From an uncultured Rhodospirillaceae bacterium (GTDB lineage: Bacteria; Pseudomonadota; Alphaproteobacteria; Micavibrionales; UBA2020): a stretch of 64,000 bases of DNA. The notes below the pieces were generated by a model. It was not told where the DNA came from, made no database searches, and saw nothing but the letters and a program-made list of their open reading frames with translations. Shown piece after piece: positions 31,853 through 56,553 of this stretch (position 1 is its first letter; each line of letters starts with the position of its first letter). Made by a program: the position numbers and the translations under genes. Location of the stretch: assembly GCA_964476835.1 (NCBI GenBank), contig CAYZCE010000003.1, positions 8,579-72,578 of the forward strand, given 5' to 3'.

Positions 31853-32548
31853 TTAAGCGGCGATCTTTTCCTTGACCTTGTAGAACATGCCGCCCCACAG
31901 GCGCGGCGGCGTCTCGCCGAAGGCGCCGTCCTTGGAGCGCCAATAGGCCAGCACTTGCGGGAACTGGTTGAACTCCAGCTCGCCCTCGCGGATGATGCGG
32001 CGGTCGAGCGGCAGGATGCGGAAGCCTTTCAGCCTGGCGCCGCGGTCGCGGTATTCCTTCGCCTCGAGGAAATCCTGCAGGATGGAGCTGAGGATCTTCG
32101 CGCTGTCGGTGCCGAGGCGCGCGTTGGCTTCGGCCTTGCGGGCGAGCAGCGCTTCCATCGCGTCGCGCGCGGCGTCGGCCATGGGCCCGCGGCTGATGCG
32201 CGCAACGTAGATGGCGCGGCAGATATGATGGAGCGCGGCCTGCCCGATTTCGGGCAGCCAGATGAGTGCGCCGGACTGCATGCGGTCGATCTTATCGATC
32301 TGGAAGCATTGGTGGCAGAACGGGCAGGCGGTGGCGTAGTGCTCTTCGCCCGTCTCGTTGCCTTTGGGCCCGATGAAGTTGACCTCTTGGTACTTAAGCG
32401 ACATGAAGCCGCAATAGCGGCACGTGTGGTTGTCGCGCACCAGCACCTTGTTCTTGAGGTCTTCGGGAACCTTGTGAACGTCCTTGGATAAAGGACGCCC
32501 GGTGTCAGACAAAGCGCTCACACCGGGCGTGATCTTCAGGTAAGCCAT
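31853..32548 (-). CDS. icmJ: Dot/Icm T4BSS protein IcmJ/DotN (Cys-cluster zinc-binding)
   Basis: RDNHTCRYCGF...ACPFCHQCF Cys cluster and IWLPEIGQAALHHICRAIY match the IcmJ/DotN pattern. Last gene of the icmG-C-D-J order, as in Legionella. Confidence 0.75.
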   Translation of the reverse strand: MAYLKITPGVSALSDTGRPLSKDVHKVPEDLKNKVLVRDNHTCRYCGFMSLKYQEVNFIGPKGNETGEEHYATACPFCHQCFQIDKIDRMQSGALIWLPEIGQAALHHICRAIYVARISRGPMADAARDAMEALLARKAEANARLGTDSAKILSSILQDFLEAKEYRDRGARLKGFRILPLDRRIIREGELEFNQFPQVLAYWRSKDGAFGETPPRLWGGMFYKVKEKIAA

Positions 32549-32568
32549 GTGGCTCGTCGGTTTCCCGC

Positions 32569-32958
32569 TTAGCCGCCAGCCTGGACGCCGTTGAAGGTCG
32601 CCATGCTGCCCGTTGCGGTACCGCCGGCGTTACCAGCGTTGATGTTGCCGACCATCGCGTCGGTCAGGAACGGCAGTGCCAGGAGGCCGCCGCCTGCGCC
32701 GAGACGGACAAGGCCGTCCTTGAGCGGGGTTTGACCCGGGCTGTCAACGTGCGCCTTGAGCTTGAAGACGCCGGCGACGCCAAGACCGATGCCGCCGATG
32801 TAAGCGACGGTCGAGATCAGGCTCGGGATGCGGCTGGACGCCGTCACGATGTTGTCGGACAGGTCGCTGAAGTTTTCAGCGAAGGCCGCGTTGGCCTGGC
32901 CGACGAGAACGCCGGCGGTGACCGCTGCTGCCAGTTTGTGCGTAAGATGCTTTTTCAT
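32569..32958 (-). CDS. icmD: IcmD/DotP-like small membrane protein
   Basis: 129 aa, signal/anchor ...GQANAAFA. One hydrophobic module, VAYIGGIGLGVAGVFKLKAHVDSP...GAGGGLLALPFL. Perfect AAGGAGG RBS. Sits between the icmC-like gene and icmJ. Confidence 0.6.
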   Translation of the reverse strand: MKKHLTHKLAAAVTAGVLVGQANAAFAENFSDLSDNIVTASSRIPSLISTVAYIGGIGLGVAGVFKLKAHVDSPGQTPLKDGLVRLGAGGGLLALPFLTDAMVGNINAGNAGGTATGSMATFNGVQAGG

Positions 32959-33036
32959 GTTTTACTCCTCCTTGAGTGTAGCCCCGTTTAAGTTGTAGTC
33001 CCTAGTATCATAGTACCATGGTTCCTTTTTAGCCCG

Positions 33037-33969
33037 CTAGTTAAATGTAATGCCGTTGGTAATCCCCACCGTTTGTTGAAGCACGTTGACAAGGTCACCG
33101 AGGTTGATCGCCAGCGCGCCGCCGAAGATGAAGGTGAGCGCCTGCGCGAGCGAATGCTGCTGGTGGTGGCCGTCGGCAAAGGCCTTGAGCACGAAGAGGC
33201 CGCGCACGAAGGCGATCATGCCGACGATCAGGATGAATGCCATAACCGCATTCACAACGGATTCAATGCGCTGGCGGTCGGTCGCGTCCGCGATCACGCT
33301 GCTGCTGATCGAGGACATCGTGTGCGTCGTCGCGCCGCCGCCGAACAGGCTGTCGGCGAAAGTGCCCGCCATGTCGCCATAGGCGAACAGCGCGCCGGAA
33401 ACGAGGAACGTCATGATCGTGCCCATGCCCGTCGGGCCGCGCGGGCCTTCCTGCGCCGTTTTGATCAGGCGCGAAATACCGTTGATGAGCAGGACGATCG
33501 CGCCGATATAGGCGAAAGCCGTGATCATCGTCGCCATCGGGCCGTAGATGTCGGTGATGAACTGGACGATCATGTGATCCATGCCGCTGCCCGAGCTGGA
33601 TGTCGGGTTGCCGCTGACGCTGATGGCATTGCCGCCGGTGCCGATCACGCTGCCCTTGGCGACGTCCGCCACATACGGCAGCGCCAGCATCATGCCGCCG
33701 GCGAGGAAGCGTTTCACGCCCGCGCTCAGGTGGTTGTGCACCGGGTTGTCGACGTGGTCCTTGAACTTGAAGATGCCGTCGACGGCGAGATAAAGGCCGG
33801 CGATATAGGCGAAAGCGGTCAGGATCGTCGGGAAATTCGCGAAGCCTTGCGTGACGCGCGTAATCACGCCGCCCAGCGTGCCCGATGTTTGCGCAAAGGC
33901 CGGCTCGGCCGCCATCAGGAGCAAAGCGGCAGTCAGAAGGACTCTATGAATCGACCGACGGAAACTCAT
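33037..33969 (-). CDS. icmC: IcmC/DotE-like membrane protein with three IcmD-type modules
   Basis: Signal peptide ...AAEPAFA. Three copies of the module seen in icmD: FAYIAGLYLAVDGIFKFKDHVDNP.., FAYIGAIVLLINGISRLIKTAQEGP.., MAFILIVGMIAFVRGLFVLKAFADGH... ATG 33969 (GTG 33978 is an alternative start). Confidence 0.6.
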   Translation of the reverse strand: MSFRRSIHRVLLTAALLLMAAEPAFAQTSGTLGGVITRVTQGFANFPTILTAFAYIAGLYLAVDGIFKFKDHVDNPVHNHLSAGVKRFLAGGMMLALPYVADVAKGSVIGTGGNAISVSGNPTSSSGSGMDHMIVQFITDIYGPMATMITAFAYIGAIVLLINGISRLIKTAQEGPRGPTGMGTIMTFLVSGALFAYGDMAGTFADSLFGGGATTHTMSSISSSVIADATDRQRIESVVNAVMAFILIVGMIAFVRGLFVLKAFADGHHQQHSLAQALTFIFGGALAINLGDLVNVLQQTVGITNGITFN

Positions 33970-55094: not shown

Positions 55095-55220
55095 AAACTT
55101 CACTTCATGAATCCCCGAGGTTCGCGATCTGAACACATGATGTCGGAGATGGTAGCTTTTTTTGGGGACAAAGCAAACAGGCAAGCGCCTGTTTTCTCGA
55201 TTTTTTTATTGGGGGAGAGC

Positions 55221-55676
55221 TTAGCCCGGATTGCGCGCGCGGTTGGCGGCGGCAAGCAGGTCTTCGGGGCGGCGGACGAGGCGGTACTTCTCCATCGCGC
55301 GGACGACCTTCTGCTTGTAGTTATGTCCAAGCGACGGCGTGGCCGAGTGGTAATGCGCGATGCCCTGCTCGAGAGTGCCGGTCTGGTTCATTTTCGTGCG
55401 CAGGATCCACGCGCCGACGCCGATGTTGACGCAGGCGTCGTCGCGCACGAGGCGCAGGGCTTCCTTGGGCTGCACGCCCCAATAGCTGGCGAGCGACGGG
55501 ATCCAGATCGTGTTGATCTGCATGGGGCCGAGGTCGTAGGTGTTGTTGGTGTTGCGCGAGGCTTGCCCGATGCGCCCGCCCTCGACGTTGAGGATGCCGA
55601 GGATGACCGACGGCGGCACCACATAGGTTTGCGAGGCGGCGAAGATGCAGGTGGCGAGCAGTTGCGGCGTGATCAT
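55221..55676 (-). CDS. lytic transglycosylase (SLT domain, VirB1/TrbN-like)
   Basis: ILNVEGG (catalytic Glu region), YDLGPMQIN and AHYHS motifs of small T4SS-associated SLT enzymes. Confidence 0.8.
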   Translation of the reverse strand: MITPQLLATCIFAASQTYVVPPSVILGILNVEGGRIGQASRNTNNTYDLGPMQINTIWIPSLASYWGVQPKEALRLVRDDACVNIGVGAWILRTKMNQTGTLEQGIAHYHSATPSLGHNYKQKVVRAMEKYRLVRRPEDLLAAANRARNPG

Positions 55677-55686
55677 GGGGTCCTCG

Positions 55687-56553
55687 TTACTTCAACTGCA
55701 TGAATTCGGACGGCAGCAGCATCTTGTTCTCCGGCCGGCCGACCAGTGCGACGATCTTGCCGTCGGCGGGGCGGCGGTAAAGCGTGAAGGGCGGCGTCGG
55801 CAGGCGCCATTTCTTCACCAATGCCGTATTGGCCTCAAGGCGCGCGGCCGCGCCGTCCTTGATCTTGTCCGCGCCGAGCGCGCCTTGGTCGCCGGCAGCC
55901 CAGGCCTTCCATGCAGCCATCGGGTCGGTGGCGGAAAGCAGCGCCGCGCCCGCCGTGCGGTTGGCGTCGGCATCGCCGAAGGGGATCAGGCGCACCTGGA
56001 AGCGGCCTGCGGCAACCTGGTCGGACAGGTCGGCCCAATAGTCGCGGCAGTGGTCGCAGTTCGCATTCATGAAGACGTAGAGATAGGGCGCTTGCGCGTT
56101 GCCCAGCGCGACCCAATTGGCCTTTTCAGCTGCGGCATACAGCTGTTCGGCGGGCATCGCCGATTTTTCCGCGCCGGGCGTGGCGGCCTGTCCGCCGCTC
56201 ATTTTCTGCTCATAGGCCTTGAGCTGGCGCAACGTCTCCGACGAGCCGTCGGGCGCATAGAGCGTGCCTTTCAGCAGCGCGCCGTCGGGCGTCGTATAGA
56301 TGTATTGTGTGTCGCCCTTGGGGCTGATGAGGATCCAGCCGTCGAGGCCGTGCGCGTTGCCGAGGTAATCGAACTTGCCGCCGGCTGTCTCGAAAGCGTT
56401 GAGCGCCGCCTGTCCGCCGGGCAATTGCGGCTCCGCCCGCGCGGGCGTGCAGAGGAAGGCGATGGTCGCCAGCGCAAGGAGAGCGCCGCTTTGACGCGCG
56501 GTTTTCACGGACAGGCCTTTCCCGTTTCCCAAAAAAGTCTTCGTCGAACTCAT
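55687..56553 (-). CDS. periplasmic DsbC/DsbG-like thiol:disulfide isomerase
   Basis: Start MSSTKTF... with signal peptide ...FLCTPARA. Thioredoxin fold with the CDHC active site (FMNANCDHCRDYW). First gene of the dot operon. Confidence 0.75.
   Translation of the reverse strand: MSSTKTFLGNGKGLSVKTARQSGALLALATIAFLCTPARAEPQLPGGQAALNAFETAGGKFDYLGNAHGLDGWILISPKGDTQYIYTTPDGALLKGTLYAPDGSSETLRQLKAYEQKMSGGQAATPGAEKSAMPAEQLYAAAEKANWVALGNAQAPYLYVFMNANCDHCRDYWADLSDQVAAGRFQVRLIPFGDADANRTAGAALLSATDPMAAWKAWAAGDQGALGADKIKDGAAARLEANTALVKKWRLPTPPFTLYRRPADGKIVALVGRPENKMLLPSEFMQLK

Follow-up and report, generated by a model that had tools for sequence, protein, structure and literature searches.

The locus described here raises the question of whether a Dot/Icm-type (type IVB) gene set on an alphaproteobacterial chromosome encodes a protein translocator, a conjugation machine or a non-functional remnant and, if a translocator, at which cells it is aimed. 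The window, that is, the entire 64-kb stretch of DNA that was analysed, comes from a Micavibrionales-like alphaproteobacterium (Micavibrio lineage) and contains about 18 genes of such a system, most of the machine (Table 1). We consider it likely that the locus is part of a vertically inherited Dot/Icm-type system that functions as a contact-dependent protein translocator and not as a conjugation machine.

The first-pass annotation had recognized a chromosomal type IVB locus, incomplete within the window, with twelve Dot/Icm genes; in Pfam, NCBIfam and PDB searches, all twelve match Dot/Icm families at that place, on the minus strand, through profiles or through similarity to solved Legionella proteins. 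Also borne out were the second full-length icmL paralog, the DotD lipobox, the DotB Walker A motif and the overlapping or tight junctions inside operons (-23 to +36 nt), except that dotB and icmT are joined by TGATG, with a 1-nt overlap, rather than by ATGA. The division into two blocks overlooked the four IcmX-like genes and those for the STN+TcpQ, SLT and DsbG-like proteins. Because all of these genes belong to the conserved locus, its only true interruption consists of flgK, flgL and the RNase J gene.

Table 1 Features of the 64-kb window, with the evidence for each assignment
Feature	Coordinates	Strand	Evidence
tRNA-Gly, sole tRNA of the window	20170-20244		11 kb from the locus
IcmJ/DotN	31853..32548	-	NCBIfam IcmJ_DotN E 7e-23; PDB DotN 5x1h E 6e-16
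IcmD/DotP-like small membrane protein	32569..32958	-	Pfam DUF6750 E 6e-4 (weak, below cut-off)
IcmC/DotE/TraQ-like membrane protein	33037..33978	-	NCBIfam TraQ E 4e-10; N-terminal DUF6750 part, Pfam E 6e-9
IcmG/DotF-like protein	34197..35315	-	Weak: NCBIfam IcmG_DotF E 9e-10, TraP E 1e-6, both below cut-off
DotG/IcmE (VirB10/TrbI-like core protein)	35312..36727	-	Pfam TrbI E 2e-9; NCBIfam IcmE/DotG 131 bits (TraO 84 bits)
DotH/IcmK outer-membrane core protein	36717..38015	-	Pfam T4BSS_DotH_IcmK E 9e-75; PDB 6x62 DotH E 1e-46
Second DotI/IcmL paralog, 216 aa	38050..38700	-	Full DotI domain, Pfam DotI_IcmL E 4e-30; NCBIfam IcmL 117 bits
DotI/IcmL inner-membrane component, first gene of operon	38679..39485	-	Pfam E 4e-61; NCBIfam 200 bits (cut-off 175 bits)
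Promoter-like site ahead of the DotI/IcmL operon	39540-39513	-	
flgK, flgL, RNase J	39669-44813		Interrupt the locus
IcmX-like paralog 1, secreted or periplasmic, helical	45060..46322	-	Family A1 member; family HMM 396 bits
IcmX-like paralog 2	46333..47643	-	Same basis as paralog 1; family HMM 381 bits
IcmX-like paralog 3	47654..48988	-	AF2 model pLDDT 66.9; PDB fold match IcmX 9ngy_AP1
IcmX-like paralog 4	48985..50301	-	AF2 model pLDDT 73.8; PDB fold match IcmX 9ngy_AP1
STN + TcpQ-domain envelope protein, Ala/Pro-rich linkers, accessory component	50411..51967	-	Pfam TcpQ E 7e-15, STN E 1e-8
IcmT/TraK, 98 aa	51982..52278	-	NCBIfam IcmT_TraK E 1e-24, above cut-off; Pfam IcmT_2 on identical Logan gene call
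DotB, PilT-like hexameric ATPase	52278..53456	-	TIGR02524 383 bits (TraJ 235 bits); Walker A GPTGSGKS(T) at residue 168
DotC/TraI-family outer-membrane core protein	53435..54631	-	Pfam T4SS_TraI E 4e-75; PDB DotC E 5e-38
DotD lipoprotein	54609..55094	-	Pfam DotD E 1e-35; NCBIfam E 6e-33; LASGC lipobox; start from 161-aa gene call (longer ORF extends to 55184)
SLT-domain lytic transglycosylase (TrbN-like)	55221..55676	-	Pfam SLT E 1.5e-5; NCBIfam TrbN E 2e-23
DsbG/DsbC-like periplasmic thiol:disulfide interchange protein, first gene of operon	55687..56553	-	NCBIfam DsbG E 2e-24; 288-aa gene call
Three ankyrin-repeat ORFs, candidate substrates	59381..62767	+	Pfam Ank families, E 2e-25 to 2e-61; association only

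Sequence comparisons support the placement of the locus nearer to Dot/Icm proteins than to the IncI Tra proteins. DotB, which shares 47% identity with its L. adelaidensis counterpart, and DotG score higher with the Dot/Icm models than with TraJ and TraO, respectively (Table 1), and the product of the first DotI/IcmL gene matches DotI in the PDB with E 7e-29 and R64 TraM with E 1e-9 (104 versus 41 bits). The IcmG/DotF-like gene occupies a conserved position, with an ATGA overlap with dotG, and in the relatives, too, the IcmD-like gene is flanked by the IcmC-like gene and icmJ. Several of the IcmJ homologs (n = 1327) carry the NCBI or JGI name DotN/IcmJ; in Legionella, IcmJ/DotN is a subunit of the coupling complex. 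Two DotI/IcmL copies are present also in loci L089, L102 and L104, and one in the Micavibrio clade (L111). Among the accessory genes, the DsbG-like gene is kept in 53 relatives, the SLT gene lies upstream of dotD in 55, and the STN+TcpQ gene follows icmT in 52.

The four tandem paralogs between the blocks are probably IcmX-like, given that IcmX (9ngy_AP1) is the sole meaningful PDB match of two independent structural models. The best fold match of paralog 4 has E 0.02 and probability 1.00, and that of paralog 3 has E 0.1 and probability 0.98 (0.04 for the next match); the TM-score behind the assignment is low (0.24), and the models are of moderate confidence. Further support comes from hhalign comparison of paralog 4 with L. 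adelaidensis IcmX, which gave a motif match with E 5e-4 and probability 32%. Paralogs 1 and 2 contain a signal peptide and conserved cysteines. In the DotA-IcmX channel, IcmX forms the VirB5-like tip (bioRxiv 10.1101/2025.06.23.660953).

The locus lacks the hallmarks of a mobile element, as the first-pass annotation had held: Pfam scans, which covered essentially every predicted gene, detected no relaxase or integrase in the window, the GC content is 0.58-0.67 throughout, without a shift, GC3 is host-like, and the neighbours are core genes (mnmG, parAB, mreBCD, dnaN and fatty-acid oxidation genes). A DotB search yielded 71 chromosomal loci with 61-91% identity and shared synteny, every one of them in a Micavibrio-lineage MAG (one MAG is labelled M. 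aeruginosavorus), with the common order DsbG-SLT-DotD-DotC-DotB-IcmT-TcpQ-IcmX-like array, and with housekeeping neighbours that vary by sub-clade (ileS, rpoB, putA, RNase J, flgKL). The T4BSS genes are under purifying selection, with dN/dS of 0.05-0.43 in the window's sub-clade, similar to that of flanking core genes (rough values, with dS near saturation). In a neighbour-joining tree of two proteins (DotC+DotB) with few outgroups, Micavibrionales are monophyletic (100%) and group with the AM1/Bosea megaplasmid systems (72%) and then with Legionella and Piscirickettsia, far from IncI/IncL-M, with IncK and IncL/M as the most distant groups.

These observations bear on the possibility of a DNA-transfer machine, namely, a domesticated conjugation system that would mobilize islands or plasmids in trans, or an apparatus for contact DNA uptake or export, which we consider unlikely. 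Admittedly, I-type conjugation systems are the sister group of the T4BSS, dotD-dotC-dotB-icmT follows the order of traH-I-J-K, and the ARL-13 islands carry mobA/mobL genes without a recognized transfer apparatus; a TcpQ-family gene is, moreover, common to the locus and the conjugative Xanthomonas plasmid pXCV183, where it likewise lies downstream of dotDCB-icmT. However, none of the ~100 loci inspected has a relaxase, an oriT-like gene set or an integrase nearby; the loci are dispersed among core genes and vertically inherited, the nearest plasmid relatives are typed as non-mobilizable, and by sequence the IncI/IncL-M systems are the furthest removed.

As for the components reported as absent from the 64 kb, tblastn indeed gave no match to IcmB/DotO in the window; DotA and the T4CP gave no match either, in a weaker test than that for IcmB. 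DotL and DotM were not found in the window, and IcmQ/R, IcmV and IcmF/H were not seen there. In many relatives, icmB (so named by NCBI) follows icmJ (L078, L080, L082, L085-L090, L102), but it is not beside icmJ in the window or in its closest relatives, the window's own sub-clade. The missing icmB, which encodes the essential VirB4-type ATPase, together with the likewise essential dotA, dotL and dotM, could suggest a system that decayed in this genome after losing icmB from its ancestral place. We regard such decay as highly improbable: none of the 18 genes is disrupted, their GC3 (0.75-0.91) is host-like, and the icmB-less arrangement persists in relatives with 89% and 78% IcmJ identity, with dN/dS of 0.09-0.43 on the T4BSS genes; conservation of this order under purifying selection agrees with a relocated icmB and not with decay. 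Furthermore, dispersed Dot/Icm genes are normal, occupying two regions in Legionella and lying hundreds of kb apart on the AM1 megaplasmid. IcmB, DotL, DotM and DotA would have to be encoded elsewhere in the host genome; icmO (= DotL) appears in the gene table of M. aeruginosavorus ARL-13 (PMC3189940 supplement).

By analogy with the Legionella machine, DotC, DotD and DotH, together with DotG and DotF, would form the envelope-spanning core, with the two DotI paralogs, IcmT, IcmC and IcmD in the inner membrane. Assembly and export would draw their energy from DotB and from IcmB/DotO, which is VirB4-like, and a DotL-DotM coupling complex that includes DotN would select substrates. The SLT enzyme might open the peptidoglycan, and the DsbG-like protein might handle disulfides of cysteine-bearing periplasmic parts. 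On contact, the DotA-IcmX channel would be extruded and engage the target membrane, its VirB5-like tip being formed or diversified by the four IcmX-like proteins. We infer that the locus translocates effectors, with the neighbouring ankyrin-repeat and DUF6782 proteins as candidate cargo; the three ankyrin-repeat genes after the locus are present as first annotated, although the argument then drawn from them for an effector translocator is only suggestive.

We lean slightly towards prey bacteria as the target cells, given that conservation of the system extends across an order in which epibiotic predators are the only characterized members; killing by the system is a hypothesis. Ankyrin repeats suit eukaryotic targets better than bacterial ones. 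A tentative alternative is delivery of the Legionellales kind into eukaryotic cells, either protist grazers or hosts, with ankyrin and Sel1 proteins as effectors. Three ankyrin genes adjoin the locus, ankyrin genes flank the T4BSS blocks of several relatives as well (L013, L014, L018, L025, L027, L028, L073, L078, L080, L082, L102), and the window contains a Sel1-repeat gene, but ankyrin repeats are generic interaction modules, and the Micavibrio clade conserves the locus just as well with no ankyrin genes seen next to it, the association being confined to the window's clade. All characterized protein-secreting T4BSS act on eukaryotes (PMC11338181), and Needham et al. read the relaxase-less pT4SSi as a host-association trait (PMC9418006), yet cultured members of the Micavibrio clade are obligate predators of bacteria (PMC3189940). 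The Legionellales-type adaptors IcmS and IcmW were not found in the window, in a weak test.

Among the known systems, Legionella Dot/Icm shares with the present locus homologs of DotB, DotC, DotD, DotG, DotH, DotI, DotF, IcmT, IcmC, IcmD and DotN, and, by fold, a counterpart of IcmX; it is likewise chromosomal and relaxase-less. The order icmL-K-E-G-C-D-J(-B) of Legionella region II and that of dotD-C-B are both conserved, as originally annotated. In contrast to Legionella, the host belongs to the Alphaproteobacteria and has cultured relatives that prey on bacteria, there are four IcmX-like paralogs instead of one and two full-length DotI paralogs instead of DotI and a truncated DotJ, the SLT, DsbG-like and STN+TcpQ proteins are operon-encoded, and equivalog scores fall under the NCBIfam cut-offs for all but IcmL and IcmT. 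The IncI1/IncK/IncL-M (R64-type) conjugation systems have a common ancestry with the locus, with traH-I-J-K equivalent to dotD-C-B-icmT and TraM/N/O/P/Q corresponding to DotI/H/G/F and IcmC; genes for lytic transglycosylase and DsbC-like helpers occur on R64-type plasmids as well. Unlike the present locus, however, these systems lie beside a MOBP relaxase on conjugative plasmids, and they form the most distant group by sequence.

Alphaproteobacterial megaplasmids and chromids (Methylorubrum extorquens AM1, Bosea sp. RAC05, Rhizobium, Acetobacter, Roseomonas) carry Dot/Icm-like MPF_I sets, which are the nearest sequence relatives for IcmB (38-44%) and IcmJ (30-34%) and the sister group in the DotC+DotB tree; they share the dotD-dotC-dotB-icmT operon, have Dot/Icm genes dispersed over the replicon and are mostly typed as non-mobilizable. 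They differ in residing on secondary replicons rather than at a conserved chromosomal position, and tblastn detected no IcmX-like family member in these or any other plasmids. The novelty initially seen in an alphaproteobacterial Dot/Icm locus is weakened by such gene sets, which are present on many megaplasmids and include DotN and IcmB homologs, by the automatic NCBI and JGI names of homologs (DotN/IcmJ/IcmB), and by the pT4SSi that MacSyFinder identified in seven Micavibrionales genomes (Needham et al. 2022, PMC9418006), a call based on virB4/icmB, 6 or more accessory genes and the absence of a relaxase. This type of machine is thus known, and its presence in the Micavibrio lineage has been mentioned before in passing: that report concerns an equivalent system from this very order, but consists of one sentence and a supplementary table on marine genomes, without anatomy, synteny, the IcmX-like array or a link to predation. 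Finally, the bacteria-killing X-T4SS of Xanthomonas, Stenotrophomonas and Lysobacter (cited in PMC12428579), although of another class (type IVA, VirB/VirD4) for which no sequence relationship is claimed, is a possible functional analogue, with contact-dependent toxin delivery into rival or prey bacteria.

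The GC3-based gene map and the Pfam and NCBIfam scans reveal a chromosome-like window (58-67% GC), the left part of which is occupied by core genes, namely, prmA, mnmG, parA/parB, mreBCD-PBP2-rodA, dnaN, mscS, and fatty-acid oxidation genes, along with terC, ugd, a DsbA-like gene, and an M48/TPR protease. All type IVB secretion system (T4BSS) genes of the window are located on the minus strand and comprise two operons that are separated only by flgK, flgL, and an RNase J gene (see the table). Junctions within the operons range from -23 to +36 nt, with three exceptions where the gaps are longer (78, 109, and 218 nt). 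The first-pass annotation, made from the sequence alone, had classified twelve of these genes as Dot/Icm-type, and this assignment is real and correct, as indicated by matches to family profiles and to solved Legionella proteins. The lipobox of DotD and the Walker A motif of DotB also are as described there; the dotB/icmT junction, given as ATGA, reads TGATG. Scans for promoters and terminators produced counts not above chance and a single good promoter-like site, upstream of icmL. Operon 1 lies within a flagellar neighborhood, being flanked by a flgC-like rod gene and, at the opposite end, by flgK/flgL, and the flgK/L-icmL junction is kept in three related loci from other genomes (L089, L090, and L104). 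Both GC and AT skew track the coding strand across the window, with positive GC skew in the minus-strand gene blocks, and show no replication switch, though dnaN, parAB, and mnmG are close by.

Features of the T4BSS locus and its surroundings in the window and in related loci
Feature	Sequence	Position	Strand	Remarks
Sel1-repeat protein	window	899-1558	-	219 aa
DUF6782 gene	window	9603-10535	+	putative metallopeptidase
flgC-like rod gene	window	30457-30852	+	
283-aa protein	window	30936-31787	+	convergent with icmJ
Operon 1	window	39485 to 31853	-	dotI/icmL, second full-length dotI paralog, dotH/icmK, dotG/icmE, icmG/dotF, IcmC/TraQ-like gene, IcmD-like gene, icmJ/dotN
AT-rich intergenic island	window	39486-39668		icmL/flgK gap
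Promoter-like site	window	39540-39513	-	TTAACG-16-TATAAT, best of the region
flgK, flgL	window	39669-43097	+	
flgK, flgL, and RNase J gene	window	39669-44813		between operons 1 and 2
Operon 2	window	56553 to 45060	-	DsbG/DsbC-like gene, SLT (TrbN-like) lytic transglycosylase, dotD, dotC, dotB, icmT, STN+TcpQ-domain gene, four tandem paralogs of 420-444 aa
Four tandem paralogs	window	45060-50301	-	3' part of operon 2
Clp/Hsp100 ATPase gene	window	56854-59451	+	divergent from operon 2
First ankyrin ORF	window	59381-60130	+	shares 70 nt with the Clp-like gene at that gene's 3' end
DUF6782 genes	L102	501-1541 and 15735-16946		
DUF6782 gene	L090	16703-17890		
Pyr_redox_2 gene	L111-L113	7510-8427		between the SLT gene and dotD

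The outer-membrane core is represented by DotC, DotD, and DotH (Pfam E-values of 4e-75, 1e-35, and 9e-75, respectively), and the Legionella structure 6x62 in the PDB is matched by DotC (E = 5e-38) and DotH (E = 1e-46). DotG/IcmE is recognized through its TrbI/VirB10 domain (TrbI, E = 2e-9) and by the IcmE model (E = 5e-38), and DotF/IcmG below the cut-off (E = 9e-10). There are two DotI-domain (DotI/IcmL) genes, one of which scores 200 bits against a cut-off of 175; the second DotI is a full-length paralog, and no truncated DotJ is present as a partner. In the PDB search, DotI matched Legionella DotI with an E-value of 7e-29 but R64 TraM with only 1e-9. The DotB ATPase (383 bits) falls under its equivalog cut-off of 463, and IcmT (86 bits) exceeds its cut-off of 40; IcmC is supported through TraQ (E = 4e-10), IcmD, weakly, through DUF6750, and DotN matches the solved Legionella DotN (E = 6e-16). 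Given that most of the scores are below the NCBI equivalog cut-offs, the window proteins are divergent members of their families. An IncI-type conjugation system is not supported: wherever NCBIfam provides models of both kinds, those for Dot/Icm score higher than those for IncI Tra, and the window contains no plasmid genes and, as the first-pass annotation had stated, no relaxase within the 64 kb; nor was a relaxase found in the ~100 related loci inspected.

The four tandem paralogs at the end of operon 2 contain signal peptides and conserved cysteines and have no sequence match in Pfam, NCBIfam, or the PDB; tblastn against the plasmid collection did not match them either. The family comprises 1,356 clusters in a library of 50%-identity representatives and forms arrays of 2-4 copies in 43 related loci, the Micavibrio clade included. 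We modeled two of the paralogs, 28% identical to each other, with AlphaFold (pLDDT 73.8 and 66.9). In a search of 350,542 PDB chains, both models returned one meaningful fold match, 9ngy chain AP1, that is, L. pneumophila IcmX (E = 0.02, prob 1.00, and E = 0.1, prob 0.98); every other match had prob <=0.12, and the TM-score to IcmX is low (0.24). Profile comparison with L. adelaidensis IcmX also gave a weak match, with a motif at the equivalent position (E = 5e-4, prob 32%). On the strength of this single fold match for two models and the shared motif, we take the members of the array, with moderate confidence, to be IcmX-like proteins of the tip or channel, four in all. IcmX forms a VirB5-like pentamer capping the DotA channel and has been proposed to be pushed outward, contacting the host membrane (bioRxiv 10.1101/2025.06.23.660953).

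The VirB4-family ATPase IcmB/DotO yielded no tblastn match within the window. In both metagenomic and genomic relatives, a gene of ~1000 aa directly follows icmJ; Pfam, NCBIfam, and PDB sequence searches with this ORF gave nothing useful, and tblastn identifies it as IcmB/TraU, with end-to-end alignments to the TraU/IcmB genes carried by 3,784 plasmids. At least 10 relatives have the gene in this place, and the name IcmB is given by NCBI and JGI. One contig of Micavibrio sp. GCA_028283745.1 carries both the icmL-to-icmB operon and, ~57 kb away, the dotD-to-paralog operon. The sub-clade of the window (IcmJ 89% and 78% identical) shares the arrangement in which icmJ lacks a following icmB, the place of which is taken by a convergent 280-aa gene and a flagellar rod gene. 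In the window, a 283-aa protein without a family match is encoded exactly at the site that icmB occupies in other relatives; its position is kept in the related loci L103 and L104, and it is fast-evolving (46% identity where IcmJ has 89%; dN/dS 0.48). The T4BSS genes of this sub-clade are under purifying selection, a pattern suggesting that icmB has been relocated and not that the system is decaying. Compared with the nearest relatives, dN/dS is 0.05-0.43 for the T4BSS genes and 0.07-0.33 for the neighboring housekeeping genes, rough values with dS near saturation, and DotB is more conserved than the neighboring RNase J and Clp proteins. Decay is a less likely reading of the locus, and so is DNA transfer.

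Of the coupling complex (DotL, DotM, and DotN), DotN is present in the window; a DotL-type T4CP was not matched in the window or in related loci by tblastn with the Bosea T4CP, and when the Bosea plasmid T4CP and its neighboring genes were used as queries, IcmB alone matched. L. adelaidensis DotA had no tblastn match in the window or any locus, and neither did IcmV, IcmW, and IcmX of the same species. The Legionellales extras (IcmS/IcmW/LvgA, IcmQ/IcmR, IcmV, and IcmF/DotU) gave no profile or tblastn match in the window or related loci; such proteins diverge quickly and the tblastn queries covered only IcmV, IcmW, and IcmX of L. adelaidensis, so that this absence is weak evidence.

A DotB search of species-representative genomes detected 71 loci with 61-91% identity, all in MAGs labeled Micavibrio, 'Alphaproteobacteria bacterium', or 'Rhodospirillaceae', or carrying names expected under Bdellovibrionota, where NCBI places Micavibrio. 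Near-identical Micavibrio-type dotB loci occur in MAGs labeled Bdellovibrionales, Patescibacteria, and Blastocatellia (L004, L026, L027, L061, and L063); some of these odd labels stem from the NCBI placement and the rest look like mis-binning. Throughout the DotB loci, the order DsbG-SLT-DotD-DotC-DotB-IcmT-TcpQ-paralog array is kept, and in the clade of the window, so are the flanks, which consist of a Clp/Hsp100-like gene at one end and of RNase J and flgL at the opposite end. Loci of the Micavibrio clade, to which a MAG labeled M. aeruginosavorus belongs, contain a compact set in which DotI-DotH-DotG-IcmG are head-to-head with the TcpQ gene, followed by the paralog array, and other loci are flanked by different core genes, such as ileS, rpoB, and putA. 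Several large ORFs of initially unclear identity adjoin the dotDCB-icmT block in relatives, and all proved to be housekeeping (IleRS, RpoB, PutA, malic enzyme, GGDEF/EAL, and ABC transporter). In three loci of the Micavibrio clade, a thioredoxin-reductase-like (Pyr_redox_2) gene is present (see the table), and its occurrence alongside the DsbG-like gene suggests that redox or disulfide chemistry is a theme of the operon.

An integrated conjugative element was rejected: the window scans found no integrase, and GC and GC3 are host-like without a shift, both in agreement with the first-pass annotation, no borders were detected, and synteny is conserved across the lineage. The only tRNA in the window is 11 kb away from the locus. 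From the synteny, the selection, the lack of a relaxase, integrase, or adjoining tRNA, and the uniform composition, we conclude that the system is chromosomal, old, and inherited vertically, rather than an integrated element.

In the clade of the window, genes for ankyrin-repeat and DUF6782 proteins are repeatedly found next to the T4BSS blocks, and their products are the obvious candidates for cargo; DUF6782 is a possible effector family. The first ankyrin ORF encodes an arginine-rich N-terminus and has a lower GC3 (0.73), and the actual start probably lies downstream of the given one. A Sel1-repeat protein is encoded near the left end of the window, and Sel1 repeats are common among Legionella effectors. 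The divergent two-ring Clp/Hsp100 ATPase, the gene of which adjoins the dsbG-dotD operon divergently and is found near it in at least 11 relatives, scores 532 bits with the ClpB model (cut-off 1232), 492 with ClpA, and 427 with ClpV, and its first ~190 residues are without any match. It could be a secretion-linked unfoldase or simply a neighbor.

Taken together, these genes quite likely encode part of a functional protein translocator that is contact-dependent and follows the Legionella plan, for which the SLT, the DsbG-like protein, the STN+TcpQ protein, the second DotI, and the four IcmX-like proteins would be lineage-specific helpers. Conservation across the lineage, including the clade that contains the known obligate predators of bacteria, favors prey bacteria as the target; the ankyrin and Sel1 repeats, and all precedent, favor a eukaryotic one. 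More speculatively, the Dot/Icm-like machine might be the injection device of Micavibrio epibiotic predation, driving effectors into prey on attachment, with the four divergent IcmX-like tips adapting the channel to bacterial outer membranes or broadening the prey range. If so, type IVB systems would for the first time include one that targets bacteria, and the way in which Micavibrio 'leeches' its prey would gain a molecular handle; if protists are the target instead, it would be one more case of a known theme. The conservation of DotB, the four-fold expanded IcmX-like tip family, and the purifying selection make this lineage-wide system a concrete candidate for the contact-dependent step of Micavibrio-type killing or draining from outside, and the predation reading is directly testable in the cultured M. 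aeruginosavorus strain ARL-13.

In reviews, T4BSS that secrete proteins figure as a hallmark of intracellular gammaproteobacteria that branch deeply (PMC11338181, PMC8896642), a view that such a system would widen. The existence of the system in Micavibrionales is not new because a single sentence of Needham et al. (2022), on marine genomes, reports that MacSyFinder called pT4SSi in 'seven Micavibrionales' (PMC9418006), and because homologs bear pipeline-assigned names. Full-text searches found no paper linking Micavibrio to Dot/Icm anatomy or function (a 2026 ciliate-endosymbiont paper that mentions pT4SSi concerns a gammaproteobacterium and was set aside), and the literature searched contains no description of the anatomy, the lineage-wide breadth, the expansion of IcmX-like proteins, or a link to predation. 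The ARL-13 genome paper states that evidence is lacking for secretion systems of either type III or type IV, at odds with its own supplementary gene table, where the rows consulted list GMV_383 as 'icmO' (DotL), near gyrB and argS, with RNA-seq GEI values of 4.3 and 3.5 in the two phases; among these rows, icmO was the only dot/icm gene found by name or length, and a genomic island with a mobA/mobL gene (GMV_1250) is recorded (PMC3189940).

Among known systems, the IncK and IncL/M reference loci contain a relaxase and plasmid genes beside traH-K, unlike the window locus, and the absence of a relaxase is what sets pT4SSi apart from conjugative type I systems. The best match of DotB in the plasmid collection (47%) is L. 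adelaidensis DotB, from a mis-labeled chromosome fragment that also carries dotA, icmV, icmW, and icmX, followed by Piscirickettsia (42-43%) and the Methylorubrum AM1 and Bosea megaplasmids (40-41%). The phylogeny suggested in the first-pass annotation was built for DotC+DotB (neighbor joining, 560 columns, 200 bootstraps): Micavibrionales are monophyletic (100%) and sister to AM1+Bosea (72%), then come Legionella and Piscirickettsia, which pair with 88% support, and IncK and IncL/M are the most distant. In the same collection, the closest counterparts of IcmB and IcmJ are encoded by alphaproteobacterial megaplasmids and chromids; most of these replicons are typed as non-mobilizable, and their genes for the system are scattered over the replicon. 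In the AM1 and Bosea megaplasmids (NC_012811.1 and NZ_CP016463.1), typed MPF_I yet non-mobilizable, the dotB, icmB, and icmJ homologs are hundreds of kb apart, an unstudied Dot/Icm-like group in free-living alphaproteobacteria. Finally, Xanthomonas pXCV183 encodes a TcpQ-family gene downstream of dotDCB-icmT, as in the window, and the STN+TcpQ protein is thus a feature shared with plasmid-type T4BSS rather than with Legionella.
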